Shown: positions 308 through 63,278, counted from the first letter of the stretch. The stretch: DNA of 64,000 nucleotides from Minisyncoccia bacterium (GCA_044341565.1 JBIIRM010000002.1:1812-65811); one strand, 5' to 3'. The notes: a model not told the origin generated them from the sequence alone. Made by a program: numbers and translations.

Positions 308-3286
308 TTATATTCCGTAATTGATAGCCCCAATAGTAGGAAATTTAGCTTTAGTTGAATTAAAGAATAATTGGAGATCTTCTAAAGGAAGTGGTCTATT
401 ATAGGCAGATATATGAGATATATTTCCTCGATCAAGATAATAGATAGATGTGGTATAGGGAGGAGTGATGAGATTAGATGGGTAAATATCTGGAGCAGTA
501 AATACAAGATCCCCATTAATATATAGCCTAATTGGTTCATTTATGGTATTCGTAATAGCAATATGATACCATTTATTAGCTTCTGGGAGTATATTCGTAT
601 TATATGTATACTCTAGATATTCATAATCATCAGTCAGGTTATTATATGTAGCGCTACCAGTATTTATCATAAAATAACCTGACTCTATATATACAGAGTT
701 ATTAAAGGAATCCATTTGATCACTAGCATACGTAGAAATTAACGTAGTAGTATTCTCATCTAATACGGGCTTCACCCAAGTCATATAGGTAGAATTAGCC
801 AGAGACTCATCACCAGATAAATCTGTATTTATTGTAGTATAGTCAGCTCCTCTTAAACTACCCCCCTCATTAGAATCATACATAATACTAGGGTCTAAGG
901 ATATATCTCTATCATTAGGACTTAAATCATTCCAAGTTGTACCGCTTCCAGGATAAGATTCTGCACATACGTCTACATACTGAAGCAGACCATTATTGAT
1001 AGGAGGAGAAATACAATCTGTAGGGAAAATAAATGGATTAGTAGCTGGTAATTCTGGAGTTTCCTTAAAACAACTAAATATACAATTAGCATTATTACGA
1101 AGAGTAGGGAATGACACACCATTGCTTTGCCAAATAGTATCAAAATTCCAAGTATTAAAACTATTAGTCTGATACATTTGAGAAGTTGTAAGTGGAGTAG
1201 CATTATCTGCGGAAGATGTCTGTAAACTCGTCTCAGTATTCCAATAATTATTAGTACTATTTACTGCTAAATCTCCAGGATTAGTCAAAACAAACTCAAC
1301 TTGTCCAGCAAAACCGTTATTAATAGGATTTATAGCAAGAGGATTTTCAGAAATGACTTTTCCAGTAGAATAGCTACTCCTAATAACAGAATCTGTATTA
1401 TTGCCAACAAATCCACCAGTATAGATGCCCAATAGGAGAGTGTCTGTAGGTCCGAATAAATCCGAATTAGGCAATATCATCACATTACCTGTGGCATAAG
1501 AATTATGAATACCTATTTCTATAGGAGGATTGGTGTCTGCAATAGTAATTTCTGTACTTTCACCACCCAATATTGGATTTACTCCCTGCATATTACCTAC
1601 AAATCCTCCTGCATAATCAGACCCAATAGACACATTACCTGTAGTATATGAATTCATAATAGAAGTAGTCGCTCCACTCATACTACCAACAAAACCACCA
1701 GCAGTATAGGTATCAACAGACACATTGCCCGTAGCATGGGAGTTGCGAATACTTCCGCCGCCCATTATAGCTACAAATCCTCCTCCATGACCTCCTAATT
1801 TTCCTATATCAGGCTCATATACTACAGTTACATCTCCATTAGCACAAGAATTGAGTATTTCACCATTCTGCATTTGTCCTACAAGTCCACCAATAGATGC
1901 CCCCCCATCAACATCTGCATTAGCTGTAGAATTAGATATAGTCCCATCTTCCATCCAACCTATAAGCCCACCAATAATATTTCCACTACCATGTACCTGT
2001 CCATTAACAAGAGAATTGTCTATAAGTCCATTATTCATCCAACCCACAAGTCCGCCTCCATAGTAACCAAATCTTGCCCAAGATACACCCTCTACAACAG
2101 CATTACGTATTTCAGTTGTACCATCTGCATATCCCACTAGACCTCCTACATAGTGCTTTGCTAATATATAATTATCTTGTAATACAATATCATAAATCTT
2201 TGCATTATTCGTACGAGAAAATAATCCTACATAATAATTAAAGCCATCATTAAACCATGACCCCTCACGATTAATAGTAAGCCCTAATATCCCATATCCA
2301 TTACCATCAAAAGTCCCTGTAAAAGGTTCATCCGTATACCCATCTCCACCGATAGGGATAAATCCAAGTCCTTCATTCCAAGTCTCAGTACCTGTGGCAT
2401 CAATATGATTACCAAGTTTATAGGCAGCATTTAAGTCTTCACTCATAGCCTGTAATTCCCAGTCATTGTTAATAATATATGGGTTTTCTTTGGTACCATT
2501 CCCTGCTAGATCTGTAAAGACCTCTTCAATATTGGTAGGTTCAGAATCATGAGGTGTAGAGAGAGTATTAATAATGGAAATCTGGTTACTATATGTGGTA
2601 CCAGAATTAGTAGTGACATAAGCTCGGACATAATAATTATTCCTAATTTGCATATCATTAAACGAGGAGTCAAAATTACCATCAATATCAGAAGAAGATA
2701 TAACATTGTCAGAAAGAGTTGGATTAGGAGTTGTAGAATAAACAATTCCATTCCCTAATATAGTAGTGTTACCAGCTATAATAACAGTATTAATATCTGC
2801 ACAAGTGGCATTACACTTTACAAGAGTAACATTGATACTTAAGGGAACTGGTAAATTAGGGGTATTGGGGATAGTAATAGTGGGAGTAGGAGTATTAGGA
2901 ATAATAGTAGGGGTAGGAGTAGTTGGTTTAGCTTTAGGCTTCTGAGCTAATTTTTTAGGAGGGATAATAGGAGTGATTTCTTCATCCACCTTAATTTCGG
3001 GCTCAGGAAGCTGAATATCTATATCTGGAGTATTAGGTATAGGGGCATTAGGCTTTATTGGAGTAGAGACTTTAGGAGGTATAGGTGTCTGAACCAGAGG
3101 AGCTTTATTAAAAAAGCCATTAAATAAAGAAGGAATAATCCCCCCAGCAATAACAATAACAAATAATAATAAAATAGCAGTAATAATAATTAATCTATTT
3201 CTTCTTTTCGCTTCTTGTTTTTTTTGTTCATTAAACCTGAGCTGTATAGCAGGATCCTGCTCTATATTAAAGGGGATATTTTCCAT
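308..3286 (-). CDS. Large membrane-anchored cell-surface protein. It has a short Lys/Arg-rich cytoplasmic N-terminus, a single transmembrane helix, a Pro/Thr-rich stalk, about ten GLUG-type repeats (GGLVG/GGFVG) and a C-terminal LamG/concanavalin-like jelly-roll domain.
   Basis: 992-aa ORF. The N-terminus LIIITAILLLFVIVIAGGII is a transmembrane helix. It is followed by PTPTPTIIPNTPTPT and repeated GGLVGY/GGLIGW/GGFVGS/GGFVGN motifs. The C-terminal third has a lectin-like composition. The function is inferred from motif recognition only. Confidence 0.55.
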   Translation of the reverse strand: MENIPFNIEQDPAIQLRFNEQKKQEAKRRNRLIIITAILLLFVIVIAGGIIPSLFNGFFNKAPLVQTPIPPKVSTPIKPNAPIPNTPDIDIQLPEPEIKVDEEITPIIPPKKLAQKPKAKPTTPTPTIIPNTPTPTITIPNTPNLPVPLSINVTLVKCNATCADINTVIIAGNTTILGNGIVYSTTPNPTLSDNVISSSDIDGNFDSSFNDMQIRNNYYVRAYVTTNSGTTYSNQISIINTLSTPHDSEPTNIEEVFTDLAGNGTKENPYIINNDWELQAMSEDLNAAYKLGNHIDATGTETWNEGLGFIPIGGDGYTDEPFTGTFDGNGYGILGLTINREGSWFNDGFNYYVGLFSRTNNAKIYDIVLQDNYILAKHYVGGLVGYADGTTEIRNAVVEGVSWARFGYYGGGLVGWMNNGLIDNSLVNGQVHGSGNIIGGLIGWMEDGTISNSTANADVDGGASIGGLVGQMQNGEILNSCANGDVTVVYEPDIGKLGGHGGGFVAIMGGGSIRNSHATGNVSVDTYTAGGFVGSMSGATTSIMNSYTTGNVSIGSDYAGGFVGNMQGVNPILGGESTEITIADTNPPIEIGIHNSYATGNVMILPNSDLFGPTDTLLLGIYTGGFVGNNTDSVIRSSYSTGKVISENPLAINPINNGFAGQVEFVLTNPGDLAVNSTNNYWNTETSLQTSSADNATPLTTSQMYQTNSFNTWNFDTIWQSNGVSFPTLRNNANCIFSCFKETPELPATNPFIFPTDCISPPINNGLLQYVDVCAESYPGSGTTWNDLSPNDRDISLDPSIMYDSNEGGSLRGADYTTINTDLSGDESLANSTYMTWVKPVLDENTTTLISTYASDQMDSFNNSVYIESGYFMINTGSATYNNLTDDYEYLEYTYNTNILPEANKWYHIAITNTINEPIRLYINGDLVFTAPDIYPSNLITPPYTTSIYYLDRGNISHISAYNRPLPLEDLQLFFNSTKAKFPTIGAINYGI

Positions 3287-3394
3287 GAAGTATATTTTGT
3301 ATTTATTAAGATACTATTATTATAGCACAATTATTGAAAAAATATAATATTATGATATACTAAATATATTCTTAAAAATATACAAATATACGCT

Positions 3395-5149
3395 ATGAAA
3401 ACTGATTCTGAATTTGTTATTGCAATTGCGGGTAAGGCTGGACAAGGAGTGCTTAGTATGGGTGACTTTATACAGCACATTGCAAAAGATTTGGGATTAT
3501 ATAGTTTTATCTGGGTAGATTATCCTAGTCTTATTAAAGGGGGGCATAATATCGTATTTATTCGTATATCTAATATCCCTATATATGCTCCTGTTGAATA
3601 TATTAGTTATCTTATTGCTCTTGATGCTGAAAGTATAGAAATACATTTTGATGAAATTGTGAATAAAGGAGTTCTTATATATGATAATGATATTGTAAAA
3701 CAAAAAATTAGTCGTAAAATAACTAAAAAACAACAATTTTTTGGTGTAGGGGTGCCATTCAATGCTATTTCTCGAGGTATTAATAAATCATCTCGCTATG
3801 TGAATACCGCTGCAATAGCTGTATTACATTTTGTATTAAATTGGTCTTTAGATACATATACTCATATTATTGAAAAGAAATTCAAGAAGAAAAGCCAAAA
3901 AATTGTTGATGATAATATAGCGGCTTTGAATCAAGCTTATGCATATGTTGAGGAGCATTATGATCATATTTTTAGTAAGGAGCTTAATCAGGGAGAAGCA
4001 AAACCATATTATTCTATTAATGGAAGTCAGGCTTTGGCCTATGGAGCTATCAAGGCGGGGGTGAAATTTACCGCGGCTTATCCGATGACTCCGGCTACTC
4101 CCATATTTGATTCCTTAGCTCAATATGCCGATGAATATGGAATTATTGCCAAACAAGCTGAGGATGAGATTTCAGCAATTTGTATGACAGTAGGAGCTTC
4201 TTATGCAGGCGCTCGGGCTCTTACCATGTCATCAGGAGGGGGTTTTTCTTTAATGGTAGAGGCTTTGGGACTTGCTGGTATTACAGAAACTCCACTTGTC
4301 GTGATTAATGCAATGCGAGGGGGACCAAGTACAGGGCTTCCTACTAAAACTGAGCAATCAGATCTGCGATTTGTATTGCATGCCTCACAGGGGGAATTCC
4401 CAAGAGTAGTATTGGCTCCTGGAGATAGTGTAGAATTATATACTATGATACAAGAGGCATTTAATCTTGCTGATTTATATCAATTACCGGTACTTGTATT
4501 AACTGATAAATATTTAGCTACTTCACAAATGATATTCCCAAAAGATATTGATTTGAATGCAACTAATATTGATAGGGGAATATTAATTCATAGTAAAAGT
4601 GATATTGGGAGTGACAAATATGCTCGATATCTCTTTACCCAGGATGGTGTCTCTCCGAGAGCCCTTCCTGGTTCTCGAGGTATTACTTTTCATTCAGGAT
4701 CTGATGAACATAATGAGTATGGGGAAATTAGTGAAGATGCTCAAAATAGAGTGAAAATGATGGATAAGAGAATGAAAAAAGAGCATAGTCTTTTACCATC
4801 TATTCCAAAGCCAGAAGTATATGGTAATACTTATTCAGAAATTACTCTTATTAGCTGGGGGTCAACCAAATGGGCTTGTATTGAGGCAATAGAATTATTA
4901 GCTAAACATAATATTACTGCTAATGTAATACATTTTACTTATATATATCCTTTTAATATTCGGAAAACACAACCATTATTAAGTCGTATTAATAGAGCTA
5001 TAGTAGTAGAAAATAATGCTACGGGTCAATTCGCTGGACTTTTGAAACAGTATTTTAATTTTGAACCTGAGCATGCATTATTAAAATATGATGGACATCC
5101 TTTTTATCCGACTGAAATTAGTAATATTATTCGTAAAGAAATGTTTTAA
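3395..5149 (+). CDS. korA: 2-oxoacid:ferredoxin oxidoreductase, fused gamma-alpha subunit (KorA/PorA-like)
   Basis: N-terminal gamma-domain motif AIAGKAGQGV. Alpha-domain motifs AAYPMTPATPI and GGGFSLMVEALGLAG. It is followed immediately by the TPP-binding beta subunit. Confidence 0.8.
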   Translation: MKTDSEFVIAIAGKAGQGVLSMGDFIQHIAKDLGLYSFIWVDYPSLIKGGHNIVFIRISNIPIYAPVEYISYLIALDAESIEIHFDEIVNKGVLIYDNDIVKQKISRKITKKQQFFGVGVPFNAISRGINKSSRYVNTAAIAVLHFVLNWSLDTYTHIIEKKFKKKSQKIVDDNIAALNQAYAYVEEHYDHIFSKELNQGEAKPYYSINGSQALAYGAIKAGVKFTAAYPMTPATPIFDSLAQYADEYGIIAKQAEDEISAICMTVGASYAGARALTMSSGGGFSLMVEALGLAGITETPLVVINAMRGGPSTGLPTKTEQSDLRFVLHASQGEFPRVVLAPGDSVELYTMIQEAFNLADLYQLPVLVLTDKYLATSQMIFPKDIDLNATNIDRGILIHSKSDIGSDKYARYLFTQDGVSPRALPGSRGITFHSGSDEHNEYGEISEDAQNRVKMMDKRMKKEHSLLPSIPKPEVYGNTYSEITLISWGSTKWACIEAIELLAKHNITANVIHFTYIYPFNIRKTQPLLSRINRAIVVENNATGQFAGLLKQYFNFEPEHALLKYDGHPFYPTEISNIIRKEMF

Positions 5150-5152
5150 TAT

Positions 5153-6022
5153 ATGAAACCAAAAAAAGACTTATCATCACATTATACTCAATCAACTCCA
5201 AACTGGTGTCCAGGATGTGGGAATTATGGAATTTGGGTGGCACTCAAAAATGCTTTACAAGAATTAAAAATCCCAGCTCATAAAGTGGTATTAGTGGGAG
5301 ATGTTGGATGTTCAGGTAAATTATCCTATTGGACAGATTATAACGGATTTGCTGGATTACATGGAAGATCTATTCCTATTGCTGAGGGAATAAAAATGGC
5401 TAATTCTGATCTTACTATTATTGTAGTAGGAGGGGATGGGGGATTATTAGGAGAAGGATTACAGCATTTTTTGCATGCTTGTCGTCGTAATGTAAATATA
5501 GCAGTTATATTACATAATAATCAGGTATATGGACTTACTACAGGTCAGACTTCACCAACTTCTGATCCTGGATATAAAAGTTCAACCACTCCAGAAGGAT
5601 CTTATGAAACACCCTTAAATCCATCTCTTTTAGCTCTTACCGCACAGGCAACTTTTGTATCAGCAAGCTTTGCGGGGAATGTTCCTCATTTGACTCAAAC
5701 TATTAAATCAGCTATTCTACATCCAGGATTTGCTCTAGTTGATGCGTATCAGCCTTGTGTGACATATAATTATATTAATACCTATGAATTCTATTCCAAG
5801 AGGGTATATGATGTAACAACAACTCCCTATAAACCTAATGATAGATTTCGTGCAATGAAAAAATCTACCGAAATTGAAGGGGGTAAAAAATTCCCAATAG
5901 GAATATTATTTCAGGATACGGAGAAGCCATCTTTGCAGGAAAATATTCAAAATAGAGTGAAGCCACTCGTAAAACAACCAATCAAAAATATTTCCGTTAA
6001 GTCTTTATTTGAACAAGATTAG
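5153..6022 (+). CDS. korB: 2-oxoacid:ferredoxin oxidoreductase beta subunit (TPP-binding)
   Basis: WCPGCGNYGI and GDVGCSG...GGDGG motifs are characteristic of OFOR beta subunits. Confidence 0.85.
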   Translation: MKPKKDLSSHYTQSTPNWCPGCGNYGIWVALKNALQELKIPAHKVVLVGDVGCSGKLSYWTDYNGFAGLHGRSIPIAEGIKMANSDLTIIVVGGDGGLLGEGLQHFLHACRRNVNIAVILHNNQVYGLTTGQTSPTSDPGYKSSTTPEGSYETPLNPSLLALTAQATFVSASFAGNVPHLTQTIKSAILHPGFALVDAYQPCVTYNYINTYEFYSKRVYDVTTTPYKPNDRFRAMKKSTEIEGGKKFPIGILFQDTEKPSLQENIQNRVKPLVKQPIKNISVKSLFEQD

Positions 6023-6025
6023 TAT

Positions 6026-6850
6026 ATGTCAGCTAAAATAGGAAAACTTCATATTGATACATTAAGTAAAAAAGAAGTTTTATCTCGAATTGAAAATGCA
6101 ATTGAGAAAAAAGATATATTGCAAATTGTAACTCCCTATTCAGAATTTGTAGTGGAGGCAGAATATAATACTAAATTTAGGGATGCAATTAATGCTAGTG
6201 AATTAAGGTTACCAGATGGAATTGGAATATTATGGGCAGGAGCTTATTTAGCTCATAAATGGAAGAGTTTATGGGGATCTTTATATGCTATTATGAATCA
6301 AGATAGTAAATTATATGCTATTTTTCCAGAAAAAATTAGTGGCTCAGACTTGATTTATGATATATTAGCTCTTGCAAGCAAAGCAGGATCAAGAATATAT
6401 TTATTGGGAGCAACAGAAGATGTATCGATAGCTGTACAGCAATATATTCATCAAGAATATCCTCGTATTACAATTGCTGGACGCAATACCAAAAAAGTTA
6501 AATTACAAGACAATGAATTATATCAAGAAATATTAGATAGTCATTCAGATATTGTATTAATAGCTTTGTCTTATCCTAAACAGGAAATTATTGGAAGTCA
6601 GCTAAAACAGTATTTTATTAAATATAAGCATAAAGGAATTATTGCCTGTATAGGAGGAAGTCTAGATTTTATTGCAGGTAGCCAGAGACGAGCTCCGAAA
6701 TGGATGCAAAAGCTAGGGTTGGAGTGGCTATTTCGTATAATTCAGCAGCCCAAAAGGATTAGACGAATTTATAAAGCTACCGTAGAATATATTCTTCTAA
6801 TCTCGAAGTATAAATCAAATATTGACAAAAACAAGGATAATGCTGTATAA
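6026..6850 (+). CDS. WecB/TagA/CpsF-family glycosyltransferase
   Basis: LRLPDGIGILWA and RIYLLGA motifs match the WecG/TagA family. Its last ~20 codons are encoded by the direct-repeat unit that is also found at 9054-9097. Confidence 0.7.
   Translation: MSAKIGKLHIDTLSKKEVLSRIENAIEKKDILQIVTPYSEFVVEAEYNTKFRDAINASELRLPDGIGILWAGAYLAHKWKSLWGSLYAIMNQDSKLYAIFPEKISGSDLIYDILALASKAGSRIYLLGATEDVSIAVQQYIHQEYPRITIAGRNTKKVKLQDNELYQEILDSHSDIVLIALSYPKQEIIGSQLKQYFIKYKHKGIIACIGGSLDFIAGSQRRAPKWMQKLGLEWLFRIIQQPKRIRRIYKATVEYILLISKYKSNIDKNKDNAV
6786..6828. repeat. Direct repeat copy A (~43 bp identical, ~68 bp at ~85% identity). It carries a TTGACA -35 box.
   Basis: atatattcttctaatctcgaagtataaatcaaatattgacaaa is identical to 9054-9097. 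The similarity continues into the -10 region (ggataatgctgtataat versus gtataataatgtataat). Confidence 0.85.
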
Positions 6851-6863
6851 TTAATAAACATAT

Positions 6864-9017
6864 ATGAAAATAAAAATAAAAAGAGTAAAGAAAGGATTCA
6901 CCTTACTCGAGATACTACTCGTAATAGTCGCAATAGGAATATTAGCAGCAATAGTATTAGTAGCAATCAACCCAAATAGACAAATAAGCCAAGTAAGGAA
7001 TGCGCAAAGGAGGTCGGATGTCAATACATTATATAAAGCACTGGAACAATATCTAATAGATAATCAAGTATATCCAGCAGATATAGATGGAACAACATCA
7101 AAAGAAGTTTGTAATACAGGAACAAGAAGTATAACAGATGATCTCCCCGATGAAAATTATTGTGATGGAAAAGCCGACTTAAGAGTCTTAGTCCCAGATT
7201 ATATAGCAGCCATACCAGTAGATCCAAGTGGGAATAACTATACAGTAAGGAAAAATGAAAGTAATAGCAATAATATTAAAATTTGTGTTAATGCCCCTGG
7301 GGTAGAATTAGGAAAAATTATAAAAATAAACTGTGAAGGCGAGGATGTAGCCTCAGGAGTACTTTTGCCATCAGATATATCGCCTTTTATAGAAGGTTTT
7401 GATGATTCTCTTGGAGAGTCGTTGTACGACGAACCTGGCACTAACGATGGAAGCTATGGATATGTATTTAATACCACTGAAGAGAGTATTGTAAACGCTT
7501 TAGGTTTTTCAGCACAAGACAACTGGACAAACACCAATCTAACATATACAGTTCAACTTTTGTCTTTTTCTGTTAACCCAGAAGATCCTGACATAGAGAC
7601 CTCCCTTACCTACCTATCTCTAGCAGAACTCACATTCAATCCCAATGATCCCGACTTACTTTTAGTTGATGGTTACTACTGGAAGCCTCTTCCAACTCCT
7701 ATTAATCTTGCAGCGTCCTCAAGCGATCCATATACCGGTTATAGCATAGTCGCTATTGGTAACTTTACTGATAATTTAGATCTAACACTACGTGGTAATT
7801 TTAAGGAAATTGATGGGCAACCGATCTTCTCTTCTTTGGGACTATATGAATTTGGTGGCTATAATCAAGTAGGTGCTCCATTTTATCCTTTGCCAATTCA
7901 AAGTAATGATCAATATGGATATTGGAATACTAATATATCAATTAAGTCACTTCAGGATCCTACCCCTGAAGGCTTTAATGGCCGAGTCGAAACTTTGGCT
8001 ATTCAATCAGATGGTAAAATATTTGTGGGGGGATGGTTTACTAACTATGAAGGGGTTGATTCAGTAAATAAAATAACCCGTCTTAATAGTGATGGAAGTA
8101 GAGATGATACCTTTATAGGCTCAGGATTTGATTCAGAATATAACGATGATTTGGAAGTTACTAGAGTTGACACTATTGCCATCCAAGCTAATGGCAAGAT
8201 AGTAGTGGGAGGCTCATTTACCAGCTACCAAGGAATAGCATCTAATAGAATAATCCGTCTTAATAGTGATGGAAGTATAGATACAAGTTTTAATGTAGAG
8301 ATAGAGTTTGATGATTGGGTGAGCGCTATTGCTATCCAGTCAGATGGAAAAATATTAGTAGGAGCAGATTATAATAAAATAATCCGTCTGAATAGTAATG
8401 GAAGTATAGACAGTAGCTTTAATATAGGAACAGGTTTTAATAATGCTGTAACTAATATTACTTTACAAAGTGATGGAAAAGTATTGGTAGGAGGAGTTTT
8501 TACTGGATATAATGGAGAATTAGCTAATAGAATAACCAGACTTAATTCAAATGGAAGTATAGACACAAGCTTTAATATGGGTACAGGCTTTGATAGTTGG
8601 GTTAACACCATCGCCATACAGGATGATGGAAAGATAATAGTGGGTGGAAATTTTTCTAGTTATCAGGGAGTAACAGCTAATAAAATAATCCGTCTGAATA
8701 GTAATGGAAGTATAGACAGTAGCTTTAATATAGGAACAGGTTTTAATAATGCTGTAACTAATATTACTTTACAAAGTGATGGAAAAGTATTGGTAGGAGG
8801 AGTTTTTACTGGATATAATGGAGAATTAGCTAATAGAATAACCAGACTTAATTCAAATGGAAGTAGAGATCTTAGCTTTGATATGGGATCAGGATTTAAT
8901 AATACGGTACAAACAATAACCGTTGATAGTGATGGAAAGATAATAGTAGGAGGTGATTTTACTAGTTATAAAGATCAAATTGCTAATTATTTTATTATAA
9001 TATATGAAGAATTGTAG
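6864..9017 (+). CDS. Type IV pilin-like (prepilin leader) protein fused to a delta-60-repeat beta-propeller. Candidate pilus-associated adhesin.
   Basis: N-terminus MKIKIKRVKKG/FTLLEILLVIVAIGILAAI is a class III signal peptide with a prepilin cleavage/methylation motif. The C-terminal ~450 aa consist of repeats (I)IRLNSxGSxDxSFxxGTGF...QSDGKxxVGGxFTxYxG, which is the delta-60 repeat pattern. The N-domain is paralogous to the small pilin at 17964. Confidence 0.7.
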   Translation: MKIKIKRVKKGFTLLEILLVIVAIGILAAIVLVAINPNRQISQVRNAQRRSDVNTLYKALEQYLIDNQVYPADIDGTTSKEVCNTGTRSITDDLPDENYCDGKADLRVLVPDYIAAIPVDPSGNNYTVRKNESNSNNIKICVNAPGVELGKIIKINCEGEDVASGVLLPSDISPFIEGFDDSLGESLYDEPGTNDGSYGYVFNTTEESIVNALGFSAQDNWTNTNLTYTVQLLSFSVNPEDPDIETSLTYLSLAELTFNPNDPDLLLVDGYYWKPLPTPINLAASSSDPYTGYSIVAIGNFTDNLDLTLRGNFKEIDGQPIFSSLGLYEFGGYNQVGAPFYPLPIQSNDQYGYWNTNISIKSLQDPTPEGFNGRVETLAIQSDGKIFVGGWFTNYEGVDSVNKITRLNSDGSRDDTFIGSGFDSEYNDDLEVTRVDTIAIQANGKIVVGGSFTSYQGIASNRIIRLNSDGSIDTSFNVEIEFDDWVSAIAIQSDGKILVGADYNKIIRLNSNGSIDSSFNIGTGFNNAVTNITLQSDGKVLVGGVFTGYNGELANRITRLNSNGSIDTSFNMGTGFDSWVNTIAIQDDGKIIVGGNFSSYQGVTANKIIRLNSNGSIDSSFNIGTGFNNAVTNITLQSDGKVLVGGVFTGYNGELANRITRLNSNGSRDLSFDMGSGFNNTVQTITVDSDGKIIVGGDFTSYKDQIANYFIIIYEEL
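8375..8559. repeat. Intragenic perfect direct repeat, copy 1 (~185 bp)
   Basis: The sequence taataaaataatccgtctgaatagtaatggaagtatagacagtagc...cttaattcaaatggaagta recurs exactly at ~8683-8865. It encodes an identical delta-60 blade, IIRLNSNGSIDSSFNIGTGFNNAVTNITLQSDGKVLVGGVFTGYNGELANRITRLNSNGS. Confidence 0.85.
8683..8865. repeat. Intragenic perfect direct repeat, copy 2
   Basis: See copy 1. The boundaries are approximate to within a few bases. Confidence 0.85.
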
Positions 9018-9053
9018 TAGATATCAATCTACCAAAAGAGTTATATCACATTA

Positions 9054-9097
9054 AATATATTCTTCTAATCTCGAAGTATAAATCAAATATTGACAAA
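9054..9097. repeat. Direct repeat copy B. It carries the TTGACA -35 box of the rpmF promoter.
   Basis: Identical 43-mer to 6786-6828. It is followed by ttgacaaacataagtataataatgtataat, which is TTGACA-N18-TATAAT. Confidence 0.85.
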
Positions 9098-9145
9098 CAT
9101 AAGTATAATAATGTATAATTAACAGTAATTAAGTAATTATTTTGT

Positions 9146-9283
9146 ATGGCAGTACCAAAGAAGAGACATAATCATAGTAGAACCGGGAAAAACCGTTCTC
9201 ATCATGCTTTAAAACAAGTAGAAGCAAGAGTACGAGGAGTTTCTCATCGTTTGAAGAAATTTTTGACCCGAACTAATGGATAA
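9146..9283 (+). CDS. rpmF: 50S ribosomal protein L32
   Basis: 45-aa ORF MAVPKKRHNHSRTGKNRSHHALKQVEARVRG.... The MAVPKK..SR..RRSHHAL pattern is diagnostic of bL32. It is not in the ORF track because it is shorter than 60 aa. Confidence 0.7.
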   Translation: MAVPKKRHNHSRTGKNRSHHALKQVEARVRGVSHRLKKFLTRTNG

Positions 9284-9321
9284 TGTTTAGTTTATAAATC
9301 GTCCTTAAATACCAAAAAAAT

Positions 9322-9756
9322 ATGGCAAATAGGCACTTTATGAGATCAGTAGCAATGCAAACACTGTATCAGATTGATGTTGCTGATTTATGGGAATATG
9401 AACAACTTTGGGATATTATTCAAGAGTCTTTATATCGTTTAGCTGAGGGAATAGAGGATATTTCTTATATTAAAGAGGTTATTTCAGGAGTATTAGAGCA
9501 TCGTACTCAAATTGATGCGGCTATTAGTAAATATGCTACTGGTTGGGTGGTAGAGACTATTGCTCCTGTTGAGCGAAATATTTTGCGTCTTGCAATTTAT
9601 GAAATTGACTACTATCAAGATAAAGATATTCCTCCTAAAGTTGCTATCAATGAAGCTATTGAACTAGCCAAAGCATTTAGTGGACCCGCAGCGGGGAAAT
9701 TTGTCAATGGAATATTAGGAGGATTATATAAGGATAAAGAGCCTATGAGTGTATGA
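9322..9756 (+). CDS. nusB: Transcription antitermination factor NusB
   Basis: [16 protein letters not shown]-terminal motif and NusB length. Confidence 0.8.
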
Positions 9757-10433
9757 GTAGATTAGCCATACTACAAGAGAAAATTGGATACCATTTTAAG
9801 AATATTGATTTATTAGAGCAAGCTTTAACACATAGATCTTATCTTAATGAAAACCCAGCATTTAAACTTGGCCATAATGAAAGGTTTGAGTTTTATGGGG
9901 ATGCAATATTAGAAGATATTGTTACAGCCTATTTGTTTCATCATTATACTGATAAAAATGAAGGGGAATTAACTAATTTAAGGGCAGCTCTTGTTAGGGG
10001 AGCTCATTTAGCTGAAATAGCTGAGCGCTTGGAATTAGACCAGTATTTAAATATATCTAATGGCGAGCGTAATGATCCAGGAGCAAAATCTTATATTAAT
10101 GCTAATGCAATTGAGGCTTTAATAGCAGCTATTCGACTAGATGGGGGATATGAAGTGGCCCAGAATTTTATTGATACCTTTATTATTCCAGATATCGAGA
10201 TAATTATTAAAGAAAAATTATTTATTGATGCTAAAAGTGTATTTCAAGAAAAAATTCAAGAACAAAAAGGTATTACTCCTCGATATGAAGTTATTACGGA
10301 GAAGGGTCCAGACCATAATAAAATATTTGAAGTGGCAGTATATGTAGAAAATATTGAATATGGAAAAGGTAAAGGTGCTTCTAAACAAAAAGCAGAGCAG
10401 GATGCTGCAAAAAATGCACTTGATAACATATAA
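9753..10433 (+). CDS. rnc: Ribonuclease III
   Basis: [12 protein letters not shown] catalytic signature plus a C-terminal dsRBD ([20 protein letters not shown]). Confidence 0.85.
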
Positions 10434-10436
10434 TAT

Positions 10437-10895
10437 ATGCATATAGGATATGATATTGATGGAGTTTTAACAAAGCGTGATTATACTCATGTATCTCGCT
10501 TTGGAATTAGGGGATTTATTGCCTTTTTTCAAGCATATTTCCCCCAAGTGATTAAACGTTGGACATTAAATCAGCCTTTACAAGATGATATAGAAATTGC
10601 CCAAAAAATTTCAAATGAACATACTATTTCTATTATTACGGCAAGACCAGCATCATTCCGCCGTTATACTGCACAATGGTTAAAAAATATTGCAAAAATA
10701 GAATATGATCATTTATATTGTGTAGGGCTTAAGAATGGGTTTTCTGAGCGTAAATTAAAAGTTGCTCAAGATTTGGAAATTGATGTTTTCCTGGATGATA
10801 CCAAAGAGACTATTGAATTATTTGAGGCCAATGGAATTAATGCTCATAAATTTGAAACATGGGCTGAGGTACAAGTCTATCTTAAAACATTATGA
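10437..10895 (+). CDS. HAD-superfamily hydrolase (5'(3')-nucleotidase-like)
   Basis: N-terminal YDIDGV (DxDGV) motif I and a small ~150 aa HAD core. Confidence 0.5.
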   Translation: MHIGYDIDGVLTKRDYTHVSRFGIRGFIAFFQAYFPQVIKRWTLNQPLQDDIEIAQKISNEHTISIITARPASFRRYTAQWLKNIAKIEYDHLYCVGLKNGFSERKLKVAQDLEIDVFLDDTKETIELFEANGINAHKFETWAEVQVYLKTL

Positions 10896-11794
10896 CAATA
10901 TTACAAGGTTTTATATTAGGTTTAGTACAAGGTATTACTGAAGTACTCCCTGTATCGAGTACTGCTCATCTTATATTAACGCAAAAATTATTGGGGCTTG
11001 ATAGTATTGGAATTTCATTTGATGTTATGATGAATTTTGGAAGTTTGATTGCAATTATTATTTATTTTAGGGATATATGGCTTGATTTAATTGTGGGAGT
11101 ACTCAATTTTATCAAAATCCGTGTCAGTGTTTGGCTGAGAGCAAGACCTCACATAAAACAATATACCCCAAGATTCAAATCGATGGAAACTCAGTATTCA
11201 TTGGAGACATCATTTTATACACAATCTTTACAATCAGCTAGAACAGCAGTATTTTTAGCCCTAGCTACTCTTCCGGCTCTTTCAATTGGATATATATTAA
11301 AAGATTGGATTGAAAGCTATGCCAGAACCCCATTTGTTATAGCTATTGCTTTGATTATGGGTGCTATTCTTCTTGAAATTGCTGACAGAATAGGAAAAAG
11401 AGAATTAACATTGCATACTATTACTCCAATGAGAGTTTTGATTATTGGATGTACTCAAGTATTATCTCTTATCCCTGGATTTTCCCGTACGGGTTCCACT
11501 ATGACGGGGGGATTATTTGTAGGGCTTAATCGTAAAGATAGTGCAGCCTTTGCTTTTTTATTAGGGGCTCCTGTTATTCTGATTGCAACAATTGCTACAT
11601 TGCCAGATTTTATTGCTGAATATAGTTATTCTGCTGCAAGTGTAATTGCATTTATTACCTCAGGAATTGTTACTTATATTACTATTCATATTTTGTATAC
11701 CATTATACAAAAGCAATCCTTTCGTATTTTTGTTGTGTATCGTATTATTCTTGGTATACTATTATTAGTAGCTATATATAAATCAATATTATGA
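10892..11794 (+). CDS. uppP: Undecaprenyl-diphosphatase
   Basis: LPVSSTAHLIL and PGFSRTGST motifs of BacA/UppP. Multi-transmembrane. Confidence 0.85.
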   Translation: MTILQGFILGLVQGITEVLPVSSTAHLILTQKLLGLDSIGISFDVMMNFGSLIAIIIYFRDIWLDLIVGVLNFIKIRVSVWLRARPHIKQYTPRFKSMETQYSLETSFYTQSLQSARTAVFLALATLPALSIGYILKDWIESYARTPFVIAIALIMGAILLEIADRIGKRELTLHTITPMRVLIIGCTQVLSLIPGFSRTGSTMTGGLFVGLNRKDSAAFAFLLGAPVILIATIATLPDFIAEYSYSAASVIAFITSGIVTYITIHILYTIIQKQSFRIFVVYRIILGILLLVAIYKSIL

Positions 11795-12537
11795 AAACAA
11801 TTGTCTGTAATTGGAAAATGAATCCAAGCTCCATTGAAGAGGTAAATGAAATTGTTGATATTATTGCGGGGAATACTACTTCGGTAGGAAGAGCCGAGCT
11901 TATTATATTGCCTCCAAGTATTTATATATCTACCTTACAGCAATATCAATCTCGTTTATTTGCATCTCTGGGGGTACAGGATATTTCCTCTCAAGCCTCT
12001 GGAGCTTATACAGGACAGCTTTCAGCAGAAATGGTATATAATCTGGGACTCGAATATGCTCTTATTGGGCATTCTGAGACAAGAATATATCAACATTATA
12101 CTACTCAGGATATAGCAGATAAACTTACTCAGGTTCTTACACATAATCTTATTCCTATTCTTTGTGTGGGGTATGAAGAAAATCCTAATTTAGAGGAAGT
12201 AAATACAGATACAATAAAACAAGAATTATATGACATTATTGAACCCAATAAAGAATTATTAGCGGGGAAACATATTATTATTGCTTATGAGCCAATTTGG
12301 GCTATCGGTACTGGAAAAACGCCAAGTCTTGAGAGTATTGAGACTGTGAGTATTTTTATTAAGCGTATGGTTTTGGATATTTTAACTCCAGAGTCTCAAA
12401 ATACAGTGGCGGTATTATATGGAGGTAGTGTGAATAAAGACAATATACAGGAATTATCATCGATTCCTTCAGTGTCAGGTTTTTTGATAGGGGGAGCTTC
12501 TCTTGATAAGGAGCAAATCCCTATTTTATTAGGATAA
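11791..12537 (+). CDS. tpiA: Triosephosphate isomerase
   Basis: IAYEPIWAIGTGKT active-site motif. Confidence 0.85.
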   Translation: MKTIVCNWKMNPSSIEEVNEIVDIIAGNTTSVGRAELIILPPSIYISTLQQYQSRLFASLGVQDISSQASGAYTGQLSAEMVYNLGLEYALIGHSETRIYQHYTTQDIADKLTQVLTHNLIPILCVGYEENPNLEEVNTDTIKQELYDIIEPNKELLAGKHIIIAYEPIWAIGTGKTPSLESIETVSIFIKRMVLDILTPESQNTVAVLYGGSVNKDNIQELSSIPSVSGFLIGGASLDKEQIPILLG

Positions 12538-17845: not shown

Positions 17846-17963
17846 TATGTTAGAATTACTAATATAAATATAGTATATACTAGTTGCAAATGATTTGCAA
17901 CTAGTTGAATTGGACTCTGATGAAGTATATGATAGAATAAGTATAAGATTCAATATAATATAT

Positions 17964-18356
17964 ATGATTAATAAAAATAAAAAAGGATTTACCTTATTAG
18001 AAATAATACTCACAATTACTGCAATTGGGATATTATCGGCAATAGCTTTGGTGGCATTAAACCCGAATAAACAATTAGAGGCGGGAAAAGCGGTTAAAAG
18101 AAAAGCAGATATGGATGCTATTGCAAAGGCAATAGAGCAATATGTTGTCAATAATCGGGGACAATATCCACCAGCCCTACAATCTGTAGTGACAGGAGGA
18201 ACGGTAGGATTATGTGCTACAAATCCTTGTACAGGAGGTATAGATTTGACTACAGATCTAGACCCCTATATAGCAGCTATACCATTACCTGATATAGGTC
18301 AATATACTATTACTAAAACAGCCGCAGGTATTATATTGGAATATTCGTCTTTCTGA
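17964..18356 (+). CDS. Small type IV pilin / pseudopilin
   Basis: The likely start is MINKNKKG/FTLLEIILTITAIGILSAIALVALNP, a prepilin N-terminal methylation motif. The track ORF starts upstream at 17895. The N-domain is paralogous to the N-terminus of 6864. Confidence 0.6.
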   Translation: MINKNKKGFTLLEIILTITAIGILSAIALVALNPNKQLEAGKAVKRKADMDAIAKAIEQYVVNNRGQYPPALQSVVTGGTVGLCATNPCTGGIDLTTDLDPYIAAIPLPDIGQYTITKTAAGIILEYSSF

Positions 18357-44716: not shown

Positions 44717-44753
44717 AGCCGGTAGCAATAGCTGCCGGTATTTTTTTGTTTTT
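44717..44753 (+). terminator. Intrinsic terminator
   Basis: agccggtagcaatagctgccggt hairpin followed by tttttttgttttt. Confidence 0.55.
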
Positions 44754-44758
44754 ATATC

Positions 44759-44787
44759 TTGACAAATAAGATATAATATGCTATAGT
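44759..44787 (+). promoter_or_regulatory. Sigma-70-type promoter TTGACA-N17-TATAGT with a TGc extended -10 region
   Basis: ttgacaaataagatataatatgctatagt. Confidence 0.5.
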
Positions 44788-44812
44788 CACTAAGTCGTTT
44801 CGTGGATAAACC

Positions 44813-45124
44813 ATGAAAACTCTTACCAAGTTCATCGCCGGCGCTCTGCTGGCAGGCACCACACTTCTGACCGTGGCTCCCGCCACGGCTCAGTCCCTCA
44901 GCGGCAGGGTCGCCGTCGGACCCATCGGGTCCACCACGAGGGCCTGGACCTCGGTCTCCGAAGCTCAGTCCCTGTGTGCCCGCAATGGGTGCTGGGTGAC
45001 CGATGGGGTGGAGGTGTCACCCGGTAATTGGGTACCGAACACTCTGTTCCCGGGGGCGAAATCCCTCAGGGATTCAGCTGGGAACGGCCTGCTCGAGATT
45101 CCTCGAGCGACATCTCCTCGCTGA
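44813..45124 (+). CDS. GC-rich island gene 1: small secreted protein (103 aa)
   Basis: Signal peptide MKTLTKFIAGALLAGTTLLTVAPATAQ. Mature region carries CARNGCW. Coding GC is roughly 60% by eye with high GC3, against a low-GC genome. The start codon is preceded by gtGGATAAACCatg. Confidence 0.6.
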   Translation: MKTLTKFIAGALLAGTTLLTVAPATAQSLSGRVAVGPIGSTTRAWTSVSEAQSLCARNGCWVTDGVEVSPGNWVPNTLFPGAKSLRDSAGNGLLEIPRATSPR

Positions 45125-45150
45125 GGTGTCAGTTCAGTTTAGTTCAATAA

Positions 45151-45176
45151 GCCTCTGCAATGCAGGGGCCTTTTTT
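45151..45176 (+). terminator. GC-rich intrinsic terminator
   Basis: gcctctgcaatgcaggggcc hairpin followed by tttttt. Confidence 0.6.
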
Positions 45177-45199
45177 ATATATTGAAATGTTGTCAATAC

Positions 45200-45228
45200 T
45201 TGACTTTTTGGTTTAAATATGCTATTAT
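45200..45228 (+). promoter_or_regulatory. Sigma-70-type promoter TTGACT-N17-TATTAT with a TGc extended -10 region
   Basis: ttgactttttggtttaaatatgctattat. Confidence 0.5.
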
Positions 45229-45255
45229 AGATCCGTCTTTCATGGGTTTATCCTA

Positions 45256-46254
45256 ATGAAAAAGTTCATTCCCATCTTGCTTGGCTCTGTTTTACTGGCT
45301 TCGGCTGGAAAGGCGGAGACATTGCCTTTGAGGCTCCAGATCAGCACCCCAGATTCCAATCGGGCGGTGAGGGTGATCATAAGTCCCAGTCAAGCGAAAG
45401 CCTCGGCAGGGCTGGTAACAGCTCGTCCTGGTTCCAATCCCTCGGACTGGGCACCTCAGTACAATAGACTGATTAACCAAAAGGCCCTCGGGTCTCGCGG
45501 TCAATCGGGTGCTGGGCTCACAGCAGGTACGCCTCGGCGTTTCTGTCTGGTGCCTTTGTACCAGGAGGTGAAAAATCTCTCTGCGCTCCCTTGTGGAGCT
45601 TATGGGGAGAGTATCAACTTCCGGTCCAATGGACCCCTTGCCTTCAGCCTTATCAGTGTCAAATCTGATGGTGGATGGCAATGGCTCGACAATGGGCCTA
45701 AGGGGGCTGGTACTGGTGGTCTTACTCTTGTAAGTTCACCAGGCTGGGAAGTTGCTGGGTGGGGACATACCTCAAAAGGGTATGTCCCCACCAGCAGGGG
45801 AGTATTCTTTGGCCCCATCTTCACGGGTGGGGACTTGGCTACCTCGAGGATTTTATCCTCGACTCCCGCCTCGGCGGTGAGGGAGCCTATCTGGCGTCTG
45901 CCAGATTCTGGGCTCAGGTTCCCGGCAGTGATCACGGTCAGCAATGATCGTATCACTCTCTCCACCACCCCCATTCCCGGGGCGCAATATTTCTTCCTCC
46001 CTCGGGAGGGCGGTATGTCGGTAGGACGCGAATTCATCGCAATTCAGCCAGGAGTAGCATTCCAAGCTGGAGTTCAGCTGAACTCCTCCGCTACCGATGC
46101 TGGCACCTTTGGTGCCAAGCTTCCCGATGGCAAGATTGCCTGGATTCAATGGGGATCTCGTCCTGATGGACGTGACACCCGGGTCAAGGTGATTAATCAA
46201 GGTGGTCAGCCCTGGGTTCAGCAAGGTTGGAGCTTGGTCCGCGTTCATCGCTGA
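45256..46254 (+). CDS. GC-rich island gene 2: secreted protein (332 aa), no recognised domain
   Basis: Signal peptide MKKFIPILLGSVLLASAGKAE. Gly/Trp/Ser-rich. Roughly 55% GC by eye. Upstream is the inverted motif catgGGTTTATCC. The antisense ORFs in the track across this gene are GC-composition artefacts. Confidence 0.65.
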   Translation: MKKFIPILLGSVLLASAGKAETLPLRLQISTPDSNRAVRVIISPSQAKASAGLVTARPGSNPSDWAPQYNRLINQKALGSRGQSGAGLTAGTPRRFCLVPLYQEVKNLSALPCGAYGESINFRSNGPLAFSLISVKSDGGWQWLDNGPKGAGTGGLTLVSSPGWEVAGWGHTSKGYVPTSRGVFFGPIFTGGDLATSRILSSTPASAVREPIWRLPDSGLRFPAVITVSNDRITLSTTPIPGAQYFFLPREGGMSVGREFIAIQPGVAFQAGVQLNSSATDAGTFGAKLPDGKIAWIQWGSRPDGRDTRVKVINQGGQPWVQQGWSLVRVHR

Positions 46255-46261
46255 TCAGACT

Positions 46262-46288
46262 CCTCATATCAGCCCTCACAATTTGTGG
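46262..46288 (+). terminator. GC-rich intrinsic terminator
   Basis: gccctcacaatttgtgggggc hairpin followed by tttttt. Confidence 0.6.
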
Positions 46289-46327
46289 GGGCTTTTTTAT
46301 TTCTCTCCAAAAACACTATAATAGATG

Positions 46328-46356
46328 TTGTTAGCTATTGACAAAATCGTGTTTTT
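46328..46356 (+). promoter_or_regulatory. Sigma-70-type promoter TTGACA-N17-TAGTAT with a TGc extended -10 region
   Basis: ttgacaaaatcgtgtttttatgctagtat. Confidence 0.5.
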
Positions 46357-46394
46357 ATGCTAGTATGCGAGAGTTCTTTACCAGGAGTTTTACG

Positions 46395-47528
46395 ATGAAA
46401 AATCGTAACATCTTGGGGATGTTTGCAATCGTTCTTCCACTACTTGCCCCTATGGGTGTCAAGGCGGAGAATTTGCTCTCATCACCTCAATCGAATATCC
46501 AGGCAGAAATGCCTCGGAGACTCTCAACTCGAGAGCAAGCAGCTGAGCTTCGCGCCATGCGTGAAGCTGCCGAGGCTCGTAATGCTGGAAGTGTTCCGCA
46601 AATGTCACAGACTCCACCTGGACCACCACCGGTTTTGCCGGTAACTCAGGTTGTGACACAACAACCTGTCAATCCTGTGGTTGCAGGACCTGTTGTTACC
46701 CCTTTTCAAAAGGGCGGTGGAGAATCCTCCCTGTTCGGTGGTAATAACACCAATATCAGGGGGGAGGCAGAGTACAGTAGCACTCCCAGCCAGATCAATT
46801 CCAAGGCTGGAGTCACGCTGGCTCCCAAGGGGAAACCTTTCCTGATGCAAGTTACCGGCTATCAAAGCTCGGGAACTTGCCCAGCAGGTCCGGGAGGTAC
46901 TTGTTCCTATGATTCCAGTAAGCTGGATATCTATGGGGCTCTGAGAGGCTGGTCTTCCACTACCGAGTGGAATGCTGGTCCCTTTGTCCGTTTCCAGCAG
47001 AATAATGCTAATGGGACTTGGAAAAGCCCCGATGGTCTTTATTCCGGTGAATGGAAGTCGGATAAGCCTCAGACTGATGTCGGTATCCGAGCCCGGATTC
47101 GTCATCGCCTGGACCCCAAGTCTTCCGCCAATCCTTGGATTGGTGCAGGTGGCGAATACGATTTCGCCAATGGAGGCTATGACGCCTTCGGCGAAGGCGG
47201 TATTCGCCCCGGCAACTCCAAGAATCCCTGGAATCTGTATGTCCAGGGGGGTGTGAATACTGACGGAGGATATTTTTATCCCGAGGTCACCACACCTAAT
47301 CTGGTGGGGGATGCCAATTCGAAGCTGCAGGTCCAGCTTCAGGCAAAGGGAGTTCTTTATGGCCTCGGCCGTGATAACTCCACTAGTCGAGTTGAACTCG
47401 GGGCCCCCATCACCCTGAATCTCAGCCGCAATACGGCTATTCAGGTGGTGCCAGCCTATGTGCTGGGACTCGACTCCAATACCCGCTCAGGGTTTGGGGG
47501 CACAGTAAAGCTCCGCTTCGGCTTCTGA
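46395..47528 (+). CDS. GC-rich island gene 3: secreted protein with an outer-membrane-beta-barrel-like C-terminus (porin-like)
   Basis: The likely start is MKNRNILGMFAIVLPLLAPMGVKAE (signal peptide); the track ORF starts at 46338. It has a short Ala/Glu/Arg helical segment and a Pro-rich linker. The Gly/aromatic-rich body ends ...GGTVKLRFGF, a terminal Phe with alternating hydrophobics typical of OMP beta-signals. Roughly 58% GC by eye. Confidence 0.6.
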   Translation: MKNRNILGMFAIVLPLLAPMGVKAENLLSSPQSNIQAEMPRRLSTREQAAELRAMREAAEARNAGSVPQMSQTPPGPPPVLPVTQVVTQQPVNPVVAGPVVTPFQKGGGESSLFGGNNTNIRGEAEYSSTPSQINSKAGVTLAPKGKPFLMQVTGYQSSGTCPAGPGGTCSYDSSKLDIYGALRGWSSTTEWNAGPFVRFQQNNANGTWKSPDGLYSGEWKSDKPQTDVGIRARIRHRLDPKSSANPWIGAGGEYDFANGGYDAFGEGGIRPGNSKNPWNLYVQGGVNTDGGYFYPEVTTPNLVGDANSKLQVQLQAKGVLYGLGRDNSTSRVELGAPITLNLSRNTAIQVVPAYVLGLDSNTRSGFGGTVKLRFGF

Positions 47529-47687
47529 AGTAAAACCAAAAATGATAGCAACTAACCCCTCACGGGGAGCAGTCGCCTTGACCATCTCTGGTTTTATACC
47601 CCTATATCTCCAGCTGCTTGCAGTTGGGGATTTTCATTTTGTAAGAATATAGGCTATAATAGATTTTATATCTGCTCTTTTAGATTC

Positions 47688-47879: not shown

Positions 47880-47946
47880 TGCTTCAACTTTAGGTTCACT
47901 CTCAATTCGAGGGTGGGCTTTTCTTTATTTCAGTTGTTGAAAACTT

Positions 47947-47975
47947 TTGACATTTGAGTCAAAATATGCTATAAT
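47947..47975 (+). promoter_or_regulatory. Sigma-70-type promoter TTGACA-N17-TATAAT with a TGc extended -10 region
   Basis: ttgacatttgagtcaaaatatgctataat, upstream of the glycosyltransferase at 48007. Confidence 0.5.
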
Positions 47976-59144: not shown

Positions 59145-59201
59145 GCAAAATAATAAAGATATGATATTATTAATACAAAATAAGAGTAAATAAACATATA
59201 T

Positions 59202-63276: not shown

Positions 63277-63278
63277 AA

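Follow-up and report, generated by a model that had tools for sequence, protein, structure and literature searches.

A modular type IV pilin gene at the tagA-rpmF junction of a Minisyncoccia bacterium and its probable acquisition by homologous recombination

How can a new adhesin-type gene come to stand between a glycosyltransferase gene and a ribosomal protein gene, with both neighbours intact and a perfect promoter sequence ahead of the new gene as well as of the ribosomal protein operon? This question is raised by a 64,000-nucleotide (nt) stretch of DNA from a Minisyncoccia bacterium (GCA_044341565.1, JBIIRM010000002.1:1812-65811; hereafter the window, to whose full length all positions refer unless another contig is named), in which a gene for a 717-amino-acid (aa) protein with a type IV prepilin leader and a delta-60 beta-propeller is located between tagA and rpmF and bracketed by a direct repeat (Table 1). 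An initial annotation, made from the sequence alone, had considered the arrangement a duplicative insertion of a promoter-plus-gene module, and had proposed to align the repeat copies, to compare the wecB-rpmF-nusB synteny of relatives and to model the protein. The most probable answer (probability about 0.7) is the homologous insertion of a unit composed of a tagA tail, its promoter and the pilin gene, followed by spread of the resulting patch by recombination, the product being a modular type IV pilin.

The insert and the empty site

The two copies of the repeat are 69 nt long and identical at 64 of 69 positions, as found by reading the window and with a repeat finder, all five mismatches being confined to the last 25 nt and the first 44 nt being exact (6786-6829 equals 9054-9097). 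The initial annotation had recognised a 43-mer at the same two starting points, 6786 and 9054; its place stands, its length has to be corrected to 44 nt exact within 69 nt, and the weaker similarity it had seen to continue through the -10 region corresponds to the 25 nt that hold the mismatches, with TATAAT perfect in both copies. The 44-mer has no further copy in the 64-kilobase (kb) window, and none of 100 shuffles gave two matches. Each repeat copy carries a perfect sigma-70 consensus, TTGACA-18-TATAAT (12/12; 6822-6851 and 9090-9119), of which the whole window has only one more, at 47947. That the promoter repeat is an element repeated genome-wide was considered and rejected, as the 44-mer occurs only twice and the perfect consensus only three times in 64 kb.

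The synteny comparison was based on a one-genome-per-species scan with the TagA protein, which gave eight close relatives, all of them metagenome-assembled genomes (MAGs) labelled Parcubacteria or Paceibacteria. Seven of these (L002-L006, L008, L009) possess the gene order POR-alpha, POR-beta, tagA, rpmF, nusB and rnc without a pilin gene, rpmF starting approximately 27 nt after tagA. The same empty site is present in four metagenome contigs (L082-L085) found with a degenerate tagA-tail pattern and in further contigs encoding the TagA proteins P0006 (24 contigs), P0005 (one) and P0007 (ten), in total at least 12 TagA lineages and more than 40 contigs. The insert is found only in the window lineage, namely in the window, in L001 and in a 75-kb contig of sample 3300059473, which share an identical TagA protein. 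As the empty tagA-rpmF site is widespread in relatives and the insert confined to one lineage, gain by insertion is indicated, and a single-gene unit of ~2.27 kb is shown, by comparison of these sequences, to have integrated exactly at the tagA-tail promoter of the window lineage.

It is hardly credible at all that the structure arose during assembly, by a contig that joined the alleles of co-occurring strains. The data are metagenomic, several tail alleles co-occur in freshwater samples and a 188-nt exact repeat within the propeller-coding region can mislead assemblers, but the same insert junctions and both repeat copies are found in three independent assemblies from different samples, and the reading frames are all intact.

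Copy 1 encodes the end of tagA, 21 codons plus the stop, and copy 2 is intergenic, 23 nt upstream of rpmF. With promoter assignments based on the consensus, copy 1 is predicted to drive the pilin gene, the ATG of which lies 12 nt downstream of the promoter (predicted leader ~5-7 nt), and copy 2 to drive rpmF-nusB-rnc. This agrees with the initial annotation, which had seen in copy 1 the end of a WecB/TagA-like gene plus the TTGACA box for the gene at 6864 and in copy 2 the -35 box of rpmF. Neither behind the pilin gene nor in its 36-nt 3' flank is a terminator predicted, so that transcription is likely to read through into rpmF. The pilin gene does not possess a Shine-Dalgarno sequence, which does not count against its expression since such motifs are nearly absent genome-wide; in the window 3 of 56 genes have one, and starts are found in a conserved 'TAT ATG'-like context with T at -1.

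The reading frame of tagA is kept by copy 1, the changed residues being the last six, which pass from one natural variant to another; the TagA length of 274 aa and the tail are conserved in all relatives. In all empty-site tagA tails, AATATTGACAAA is invariant and TATAAT overlaps or abuts the stop codon; the ancestral rpmF promoter therefore appears to be embedded in the last ~10 codons of tagA. Among the tails compared (window 6820-6851; L002-L009, L091, L096; at least 12 lineages), the codons N-I-D-K (AAT ATT GAC AAA) and TATAA(T) at the stop are invariant, and the neighbouring codons vary at third positions. The tagA tail is, judging from this pattern, under a dual coding and promoter constraint.

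Alleles of the two repeat copies and the route of entry

The DNA around the insert is a mosaic. Beyond the patch, the identity of the window to L004 amounts to 97-100% (4895-6095 and 9146-9899). From ~6707 to 6796 it follows the L091/L092 allele (73/74 over 6712-6785 versus 50/74 for L004), and from 6797 to 6857, in copy 1, the L096 allele (28/28 over 6830-6857 versus 21/28 for L091 and 19/28 for L004). At the other end of the insert, the spacer, -10 box and rpmF leader of copy 2 represent the L091 allele (43/43 over 9098-9140 versus 27/43 for L004), and the stretch 9141-9283 is L004-like again (139/143). The TagA protein is a mosaic as well, L004-like to approximately residue 228, then P0006/L091-like and in its last six residues P0005/L096-like. 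The allele states at those sites where L091 and L096 differ, scored in copy 1 coordinates, are given in Table 1.

The L091- and L096-type tails are both natural tagA-rpmF junctions of empty-site genomes; the repeat copies are therefore reciprocal hybrids of the two, the putative resident (L091-type) and the putative incoming (L096-type) allele. Reciprocal hybrids would imply a homologous single crossover with DNA that bore its own tagA tail ahead of the pilin gene, and the nesting of L096-type within L091-type within L004-like sequence would imply a second step, by which the assembled patch was moved into an L004-like genome. The 'duplicative' nature of the insertion, as initially claimed, holds in that two repeat copies exist, yet these are chimeras of two alleles and not simple duplicates, whereas the insertion of a promoter plus gene between the glycosyltransferase gene and rpmF is borne out by the empty synteny of at least 12 lineages and the full match (28/28) of the spacer and -10 part of copy 1 to the L096 allele. 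A simple duplication in situ, with 69 nt of the tagA tail copied at an illegitimate insertion and the mismatches arising by later drift, would equally leave a single gene between direct repeats that resemble a target duplication. It is highly improbable, as the mismatches avoid the first 44 nt altogether and, together with two to three sites beyond the repeat, present the L096 state in copy 1 (7/7) and the L091 state in copy 2 (8/8), and drift would not recreate two existing natural alleles.

In the homologous insertion that is preferred here, the incoming DNA would have consisted of the last ~65 nt of an L096-type tagA with its own -35 and -10 boxes, 6 nt, the pilin open reading frame (ORF) and the 36-nt 3' flank, and would stem from a genome in which the pilin gene was probably located directly behind tagA. 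It would have recombined with the tagA tail of an L091-type resident, be it as a circularised fragment in one Campbell-type crossover or in an equivalent way, upon which the 69-nt homology was duplicated. Copy 1, resident on its left and incoming on its right, would thereby leave tagA intact and drive the pilin gene via a very short leader, and copy 2, incoming on its left and resident on its right, would leave rpmF with its original promoter, before ordinary homologous recombination in the conserved flanking genes brought the whole patch into an L004-like genome. Were the unit circular or present in tandem, one repeat would connect the 3' end of the pilin gene (…CACATTA) with TAATAAACATATATG. 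As the GC content of the pilin gene, overall and at third codon positions (GC3), matches the genome, the donor would be a related low-GC lineage.

A comparable gene order exists in the distant lineage L087-L090, which encodes the best full-length homologue of the pilin (P0139; 953 aa, 42% identity, 14 blades) directly after a 274-aa tagA preceded by POR-alpha/beta, with a TagA 45% identical to that of the window. This linkage makes a donor with the pilin gene behind an L096-type tagA plausible. In L087, the 16-mer AAAAATATGATATAAT of the tagA tail has two exact copies (6950-6965 and 9869-9884; 0.04 expected), the second just after the pilin-propeller gene, which is followed by a second modular pilin gene with DUF285 repeats (9957-12332). 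The topology is the same as that of the window. A 12-13-nt match, GTAGATATCAAT, between the 3' flank of the window's pilin gene and the tagA-pilin spacer of L087-L090 was rejected as a sign of common origin, its blastn-short E value of ~0.5 being like that of several random 13-mers.

The L087-L090 arrangement can also be read in favour of the reverse history, in which tagA-pilin-rpmF with its repeats was ancestral and the gene was lost from all relatives through repeat-to-repeat recombination, since there, too, the pilin-propeller gene directly follows tagA and has a short flanking repeat. Moreover, the L091 allele equals, bar 3 nt, the predicted excision product of the window structure, and a 44-nt identical repeat could allow RecA-mediated deletion. 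However, at least 12 independent precise losses would be needed and the flanks of the window are nested in the L002-L004 clade, all members of which are empty; the L096/L005-type allele, with its B spacer and normal rpmF leader, is not obtainable by excision, the identical 44-mers point to a recent event, and the gene downstream in L087 is not rpmF. An ancestral insert is accordingly considered improbable.

Very little credence is given to a site-specific mobile element, be it an integrative element, a transposon or an integron-like cassette, that targets and rebuilds the 3' end of tagA. Integration at a gene 3' end, an element-borne replacement end and att-like repeats are typical of integrative elements, and a rearrangement in L007, described below, starts inside the same -35 box. 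Against such an element stands that the insert consists of one ORF without a second, encodes no integrase, transposase or recombinase between the repeats and has no terminal inverted repeats at its boundaries. The 69-nt repeat lies far above known target-site duplication lengths (2-15 bp for transposons and insertion sequences), and foreign sequence covers the 80 nt that precede copy 1 as well as copy 2 itself, which is what homologous exchange would give. Viral contigs gave no protein-pattern or DNA match to the insert, and Rfam and ARAGORN no tRNA or structured RNA near the locus.

Table 1. Features of the window that bear on the tagA-rpmF insert (allele states refer to sites at which L091 and L096 differ)
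Feature	Position	Strand	Description
tagA	6026-6850	+	WecG/TagA/CpsF-family glycosyltransferase, 274 aa; PF03808 (E 1e-45), TIGR00696
Mosaic patch	6707-9140		L004-like outside; outer shells L091-type, inner shells next to the pilin gene L096-type
Allele states, copy 1	6707-6796		20 sites; L091-type 20/20
Allele states, copy 1	6797-6857		10 sites; L096-type 10/10
Allele states, copy 2	equivalents of 6797-6805		3 sites; L096-type 3/3
Allele states, copy 2	equivalents of 6830-6860		8 sites; L091-type 8/8
Direct repeat copy 1	6786-6854	+	44-mer 6786-6829; -35 6822-6827; -10 6846-6851; tagA stop 6848-6850; predicted promoter of the pilin gene
Tri-modular type IV pilin gene	6864-9017	+	717 aa; PF07963, TIGR02532, PF17164 (seven matches), TIGR02608
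Tandem duplication of two-blade unit	8372-8983	+	2 x 306 nt; exact over 188 nt, 8372-8559 = 8678-8865
Insert 3' flank	9018-9053	+	36 nt; no homology to the empty site; novel right junction 9053/9054
Direct repeat copy 2	9054-9122	+	Non-coding duplicate of the last 21 codons of tagA; -35 9090-9095; -10 9114-9119; predicted promoter of rpmF-nusB-rnc
rpmF	9146-9283	+	Ribosomal protein L32, 45 aa; directly after tagA in every empty-site relative
nusB	9322-9756	+	Downstream of rpmF
rnc	9753-10433	+	Downstream of nusB
Type IV pilus machinery	57396-63764	+	Pfam T2SSE+MshEN, T2SSE, T2SSF, N_methyl, Peptidase_A24

The modular pilin and its predicted role

The protein encoded by the insert consists of three modules: leader and pilin (aa 1 to ~160), an unannotated middle (aa ~169-368) and a DUF5122/delta-60 propeller (aa ~370-717). 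The N-terminus, MKIKIKRVKKG/FTLLEILLV, has the features of a class III signal peptide, with a basic leader, Gly at -1, a hydrophobic N-terminus and Glu at +5, and the prepilin leader KKG/FTLLEILLV of the initial annotation is recovered above cutoff by the hidden Markov models PF07963 (24.2 bits, cutoff 21.2) and TIGR02532 (26.7 bits, cutoff 16.3); a GspG-like match to TIGR01710 (aa 10-139, E 4e-14) lies below the equivalog cutoff. What the pilin carries C-terminally is, besides the unannotated residues 169-368, a series of seven DUF5122 repeats detected well above the curated cutoffs by PF17164 (280 bits, cutoff 27; seven stretches) and TIGR02608 (183.5 bits, cutoff 76.5), presumably the repeat entered in InterPro as IPR013431. 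Motif counting gives seven blades of 51 aa each.

An AlphaFold2 model built from a 40-sequence alignment predicts a long N-terminal helix (14-67) and a small pilin globule with a beta region to ~155 (predicted local distance difference test, pLDDT, ~90), and for residues 370-717 a sevenfold repeated beta structure forming a closed propeller (pLDDT >90), the best PDB matches of which in Foldseek are all beta-propellers, designed and natural (E 3e-13 to 1e-8). Of the initial description, the delta-60 fold is upheld and the number of approximately eight blades is replaced by seven; pilin and propeller are both present, and the middle domain of ~200 aa between them had gone unmentioned.

This middle domain (nt ~7368-7967) matches no Pfam or NCBIfam family even at E = 5 and is 54% identical to stand-alone secreted proteins of ~250 aa (P0242 and P0245; also P0246 and P0262); it appears to represent an undescribed extracellular domain family. 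The four stand-alone proteins possess a signal peptide and a C-terminal hydrophobic-basic tail (…PLPLLGAGSAFxWSRRLRSKIK) that resembles a sorting signal. The other modules have a wide distribution: the pilin N-module is 55-74% identical to hundreds of pilins of the same Parcubacteria clade with other C-terminal modules such as FGE-sulfatase, LamG and DUF285, and the propeller 45-61% identical to delta-60 proteins of Bacteroidota sorted by the type IX secretion system (T9SS). Module shuffling within a known class would thus have yielded the fusion as one product among others. Searches with the full-length protein and with its N-terminus gave, as close full-length relatives, only strain variants of this locus (P0122), and the three-part architecture, in these searches, seems to be without a close relative beyond them.

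A cognate assembly system is encoded in the window at 57.4-63.8 kb, where genes for a PilB-like ATPase, a response regulator, a PilT-like ATPase, a PilC platform protein, a 138-aa pilin (the likely major pilin), an A24 prepilin peptidase and another small pilin are found (two T2SSE matches, T2SSF and Peptidase_A24). The modular pilin would be cleaved by the A24 prepilin peptidase (62446-63276) and assembled by PilB/PilC/PilT (57-62 kb), and the pilus would show the ~200-aa middle domain and the seven-blade propeller on the filament or at its tip as a ligand- or host-binding module. In Streptococcus sanguinis, the modular type IV pilins PilB, with a vWA module, and PilC, with a lectin module, are displayed by the filament, and adhesin activity of a modular pilin has been demonstrated (Raynaud et al. 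2021 PNAS, PMC8179133). Along with this precedent, the family matches, the AlphaFold2 model, the Foldseek matches, the pilus machinery with its peptidase in the window and the modular pilins of the same clade make an adhesin role of the protein a reasonable proposal.

An action outside of the pilus, with the prepilin N-terminus serving as a membrane anchor or secretion signal for a surface propeller or with the protein as a pseudopilus subunit, is unlikely, though its chance is appreciable. The best match to a pilin family is to GspG, a pseudopilin of the type II secretion system (below cutoff), and a bulky C-terminal load of 550 aa may pack poorly into the filament body. Nevertheless, PilB, PilT, PilC, small pilins and a prepilin peptidase are all present in the genome, and the type IV pili of S. 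sanguinis take up bulky modular pilins (PMC8179133).

Several findings weigh against the homologous insertion of a modular pilin gene as proposed here. The crossover junctions are offset, between 6786 and 6797 in copy 1 and between 6805 and 6830 in copy 2, with both copies L096-type over the 9 nt in between; the offset would be accounted for by conversion over a short tract or by an allele outside the sampled set. A donor with an L096-type tagA followed by the pilin gene was not found in protein searches or with the tagA-tail pattern on metagenome contigs, and the site is empty in each of the lineages whose tagA tails come closest (P0005, P0006, P0007). Neither a circular form nor an empty-site variant of the same background was seen, the TagA 90% cluster consisting of one sequence. 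As to function, region 161-368 is of low confidence in the AlphaFold2 model, with a pLDDT <50 for the middle domain. In addition, L001 (3204-3509) and the 75-kb contig have no second copy of the two-blade unit and encode five-bladed proteins of 621 and 615 aa, L001 with a deletion of ~19 nt by which the stop codon of the window's gene is lost; the contig index has no entry for the exact 717-aa protein. Short-read assembly can collapse an exact repeat that exceeds the usual k-mer length, and the difference between seven and five blades may reflect real copy-number variation or such a collapse.

Related arrangements, neighbouring genes and known systems

Two further contigs present breaks or repeats of a similar kind. 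In L007 (8790-8921; MAG JAULZW010000016.1), the tagA tail breaks inside the -35 box, between …AAATCAAATAT and GAATAAGATGAG…, past which follow unrelated sequence with a strong hairpin terminator and, 120 nt on, the contig end; in ten further contigs of this TagA lineage, rpmF follows tagA. Either a second, independent rearrangement took place here or the contig was chimerically assembled. L098 has, at 3100-8700 between a PNPase-region gene and infA-rpsM, a tandem pair of pilin-DUF5122 genes (886 and 856 aa), each with a promoter-bearing repeat of 62 nt upstream (59/62) and an exact 23-nt repeat downstream.

The nested mosaic of the window, the tagA-pilin-propeller order of L087 with its 16-nt repeat and the L007 breakpoint in the -35 box hint at a bolder reading, decidedly doubtful at present, in which the tagA-tail/rpmF promoter is a recurrent, integrase-free docking site for adhesin-pilin cassettes. 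Type IV pili are DNA-uptake devices in Patescibacteria. A unit of promoter-bearing tagA tail and modular pilin gene would be excised via its flanking repeats, taken up as DNA and re-integrated homologously at the same site in another species; if true, ultra-small episymbionts would swap host-recognition modules independently of a recombinase.

Elsewhere in the window, GLUG repeats and a LamG domain are found in a 992-aa protein encoded just upstream of the POR genes (308-3286, minus strand), and a further small pilin gene is found at ~17.97-18.36 kb (17895-18356). L005, L094, L083 and L003 carry a modular pilin gene after tpiA, a position without a pilin gene in the window; an FGE-sulfatase module was seen in that of L094, the other three being unscanned or cut within the pilin gene. 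A GC-rich island of ~3 kb (44750-47950; 45-53% GC versus 33% in the genome) is not rRNA, as Rfam gives only two tRNAs in the whole window, and can be read as several GC-rich genes that encode small secreted proteins, one of which opens at the ATG at 44814 with MKTLTKFIAGALLAGTTLLTVAPATAQ. All of these genes come with an AT-rich promoter that resembles the consensus and with a hairpin terminator; the ORFs at 45256-46254 and 46338-47528 are without a Pfam match. The island looks like a set of horizontally acquired high-GC genes on native promoters.

Cultivated Patescibacteria live attached to host cells, and type IV pili mediate the binding to the host. The locus is a dated-looking, sequence-resolved case of a new adhesin-type pilin entering the streamlined genome of an ultra-small freshwater bacterium without damage, by re-use of a gene-tail promoter that leaves tagA preserved and provides the new gene and the ribosomal-protein operon each with a perfect promoter. 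The pilin gene would on this evidence move between species of one genus by homologous recombination, and the propeller and the middle domain are candidates for host specificity.

Compared with S. sanguinis PilB and PilC, the window's pilin shares a signal peptide of class III, the small pilin module and the bulky C-terminal graft, but carries two grafts, the unannotated one of ~200 aa and a full seven-blade propeller, is known from sequence alone and belongs to an uncultivated Parcubacterium. Modular pilins are numerous, an InterPro survey having listed 1219 proteins in 264 architectures, among them LamG, FGE-sulfatase and DUF285 modules as on the sister pilins here, and, in Dataset S1, IPR012902-IPR013431 and IPR012902-IPR013431-IPR013431 with 5 proteins (PMC8179133). 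The combination of pilin and delta-60 repeats thus appears to be already catalogued, and the initial verdict of an adhesin of a kind not characterised experimentally applies to the delta-60 module, not to modular pilins as a class, which have been characterised in S. sanguinis. With the Gram-negative tip adhesins PilY1/PilC the protein would have in common a beta-propeller adhesin at the pilus tip, an analogy drawn in PMC8179133; PilY1, however, is not a pilin, and its propeller (IPR008707), unrelated in sequence to DUF5122, is the carrier that docks on minor pilins, whereas in the window protein the pilin module itself is the carrier. The delta-60 (DUF5122) proteins of Bacteroidota share the propeller module, but are equipped with the C-terminal sorting domain PF18962 instead of an N-terminal prepilin leader and belong to another export and display system.

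As for the route of acquisition, Campbell-type insertion-duplication by suicide plasmids or circularised fragments likewise yields direct repeats that equal the region of homology and are reciprocal hybrids of the two alleles of a homologous segment, the pattern found in the flanking repeats here; the case of the window differs in being natural, in having a homology of only ~44-69 nt that doubles as gene tail and promoter, and in that no circular intermediate was seen. Integrative elements at gene 3' ends similarly leave direct repeats (attL/attR), an intact target gene and a partial copy displaced to the far end, but the insert is without an integrase, has a single gene as cargo and presents a pattern of exchange that is homologous rather than site-specific. 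Measured against these systems, the locus is a well-resolved example of known processes, modular pilins and recombination-mediated gene gain, and no new kind of system.

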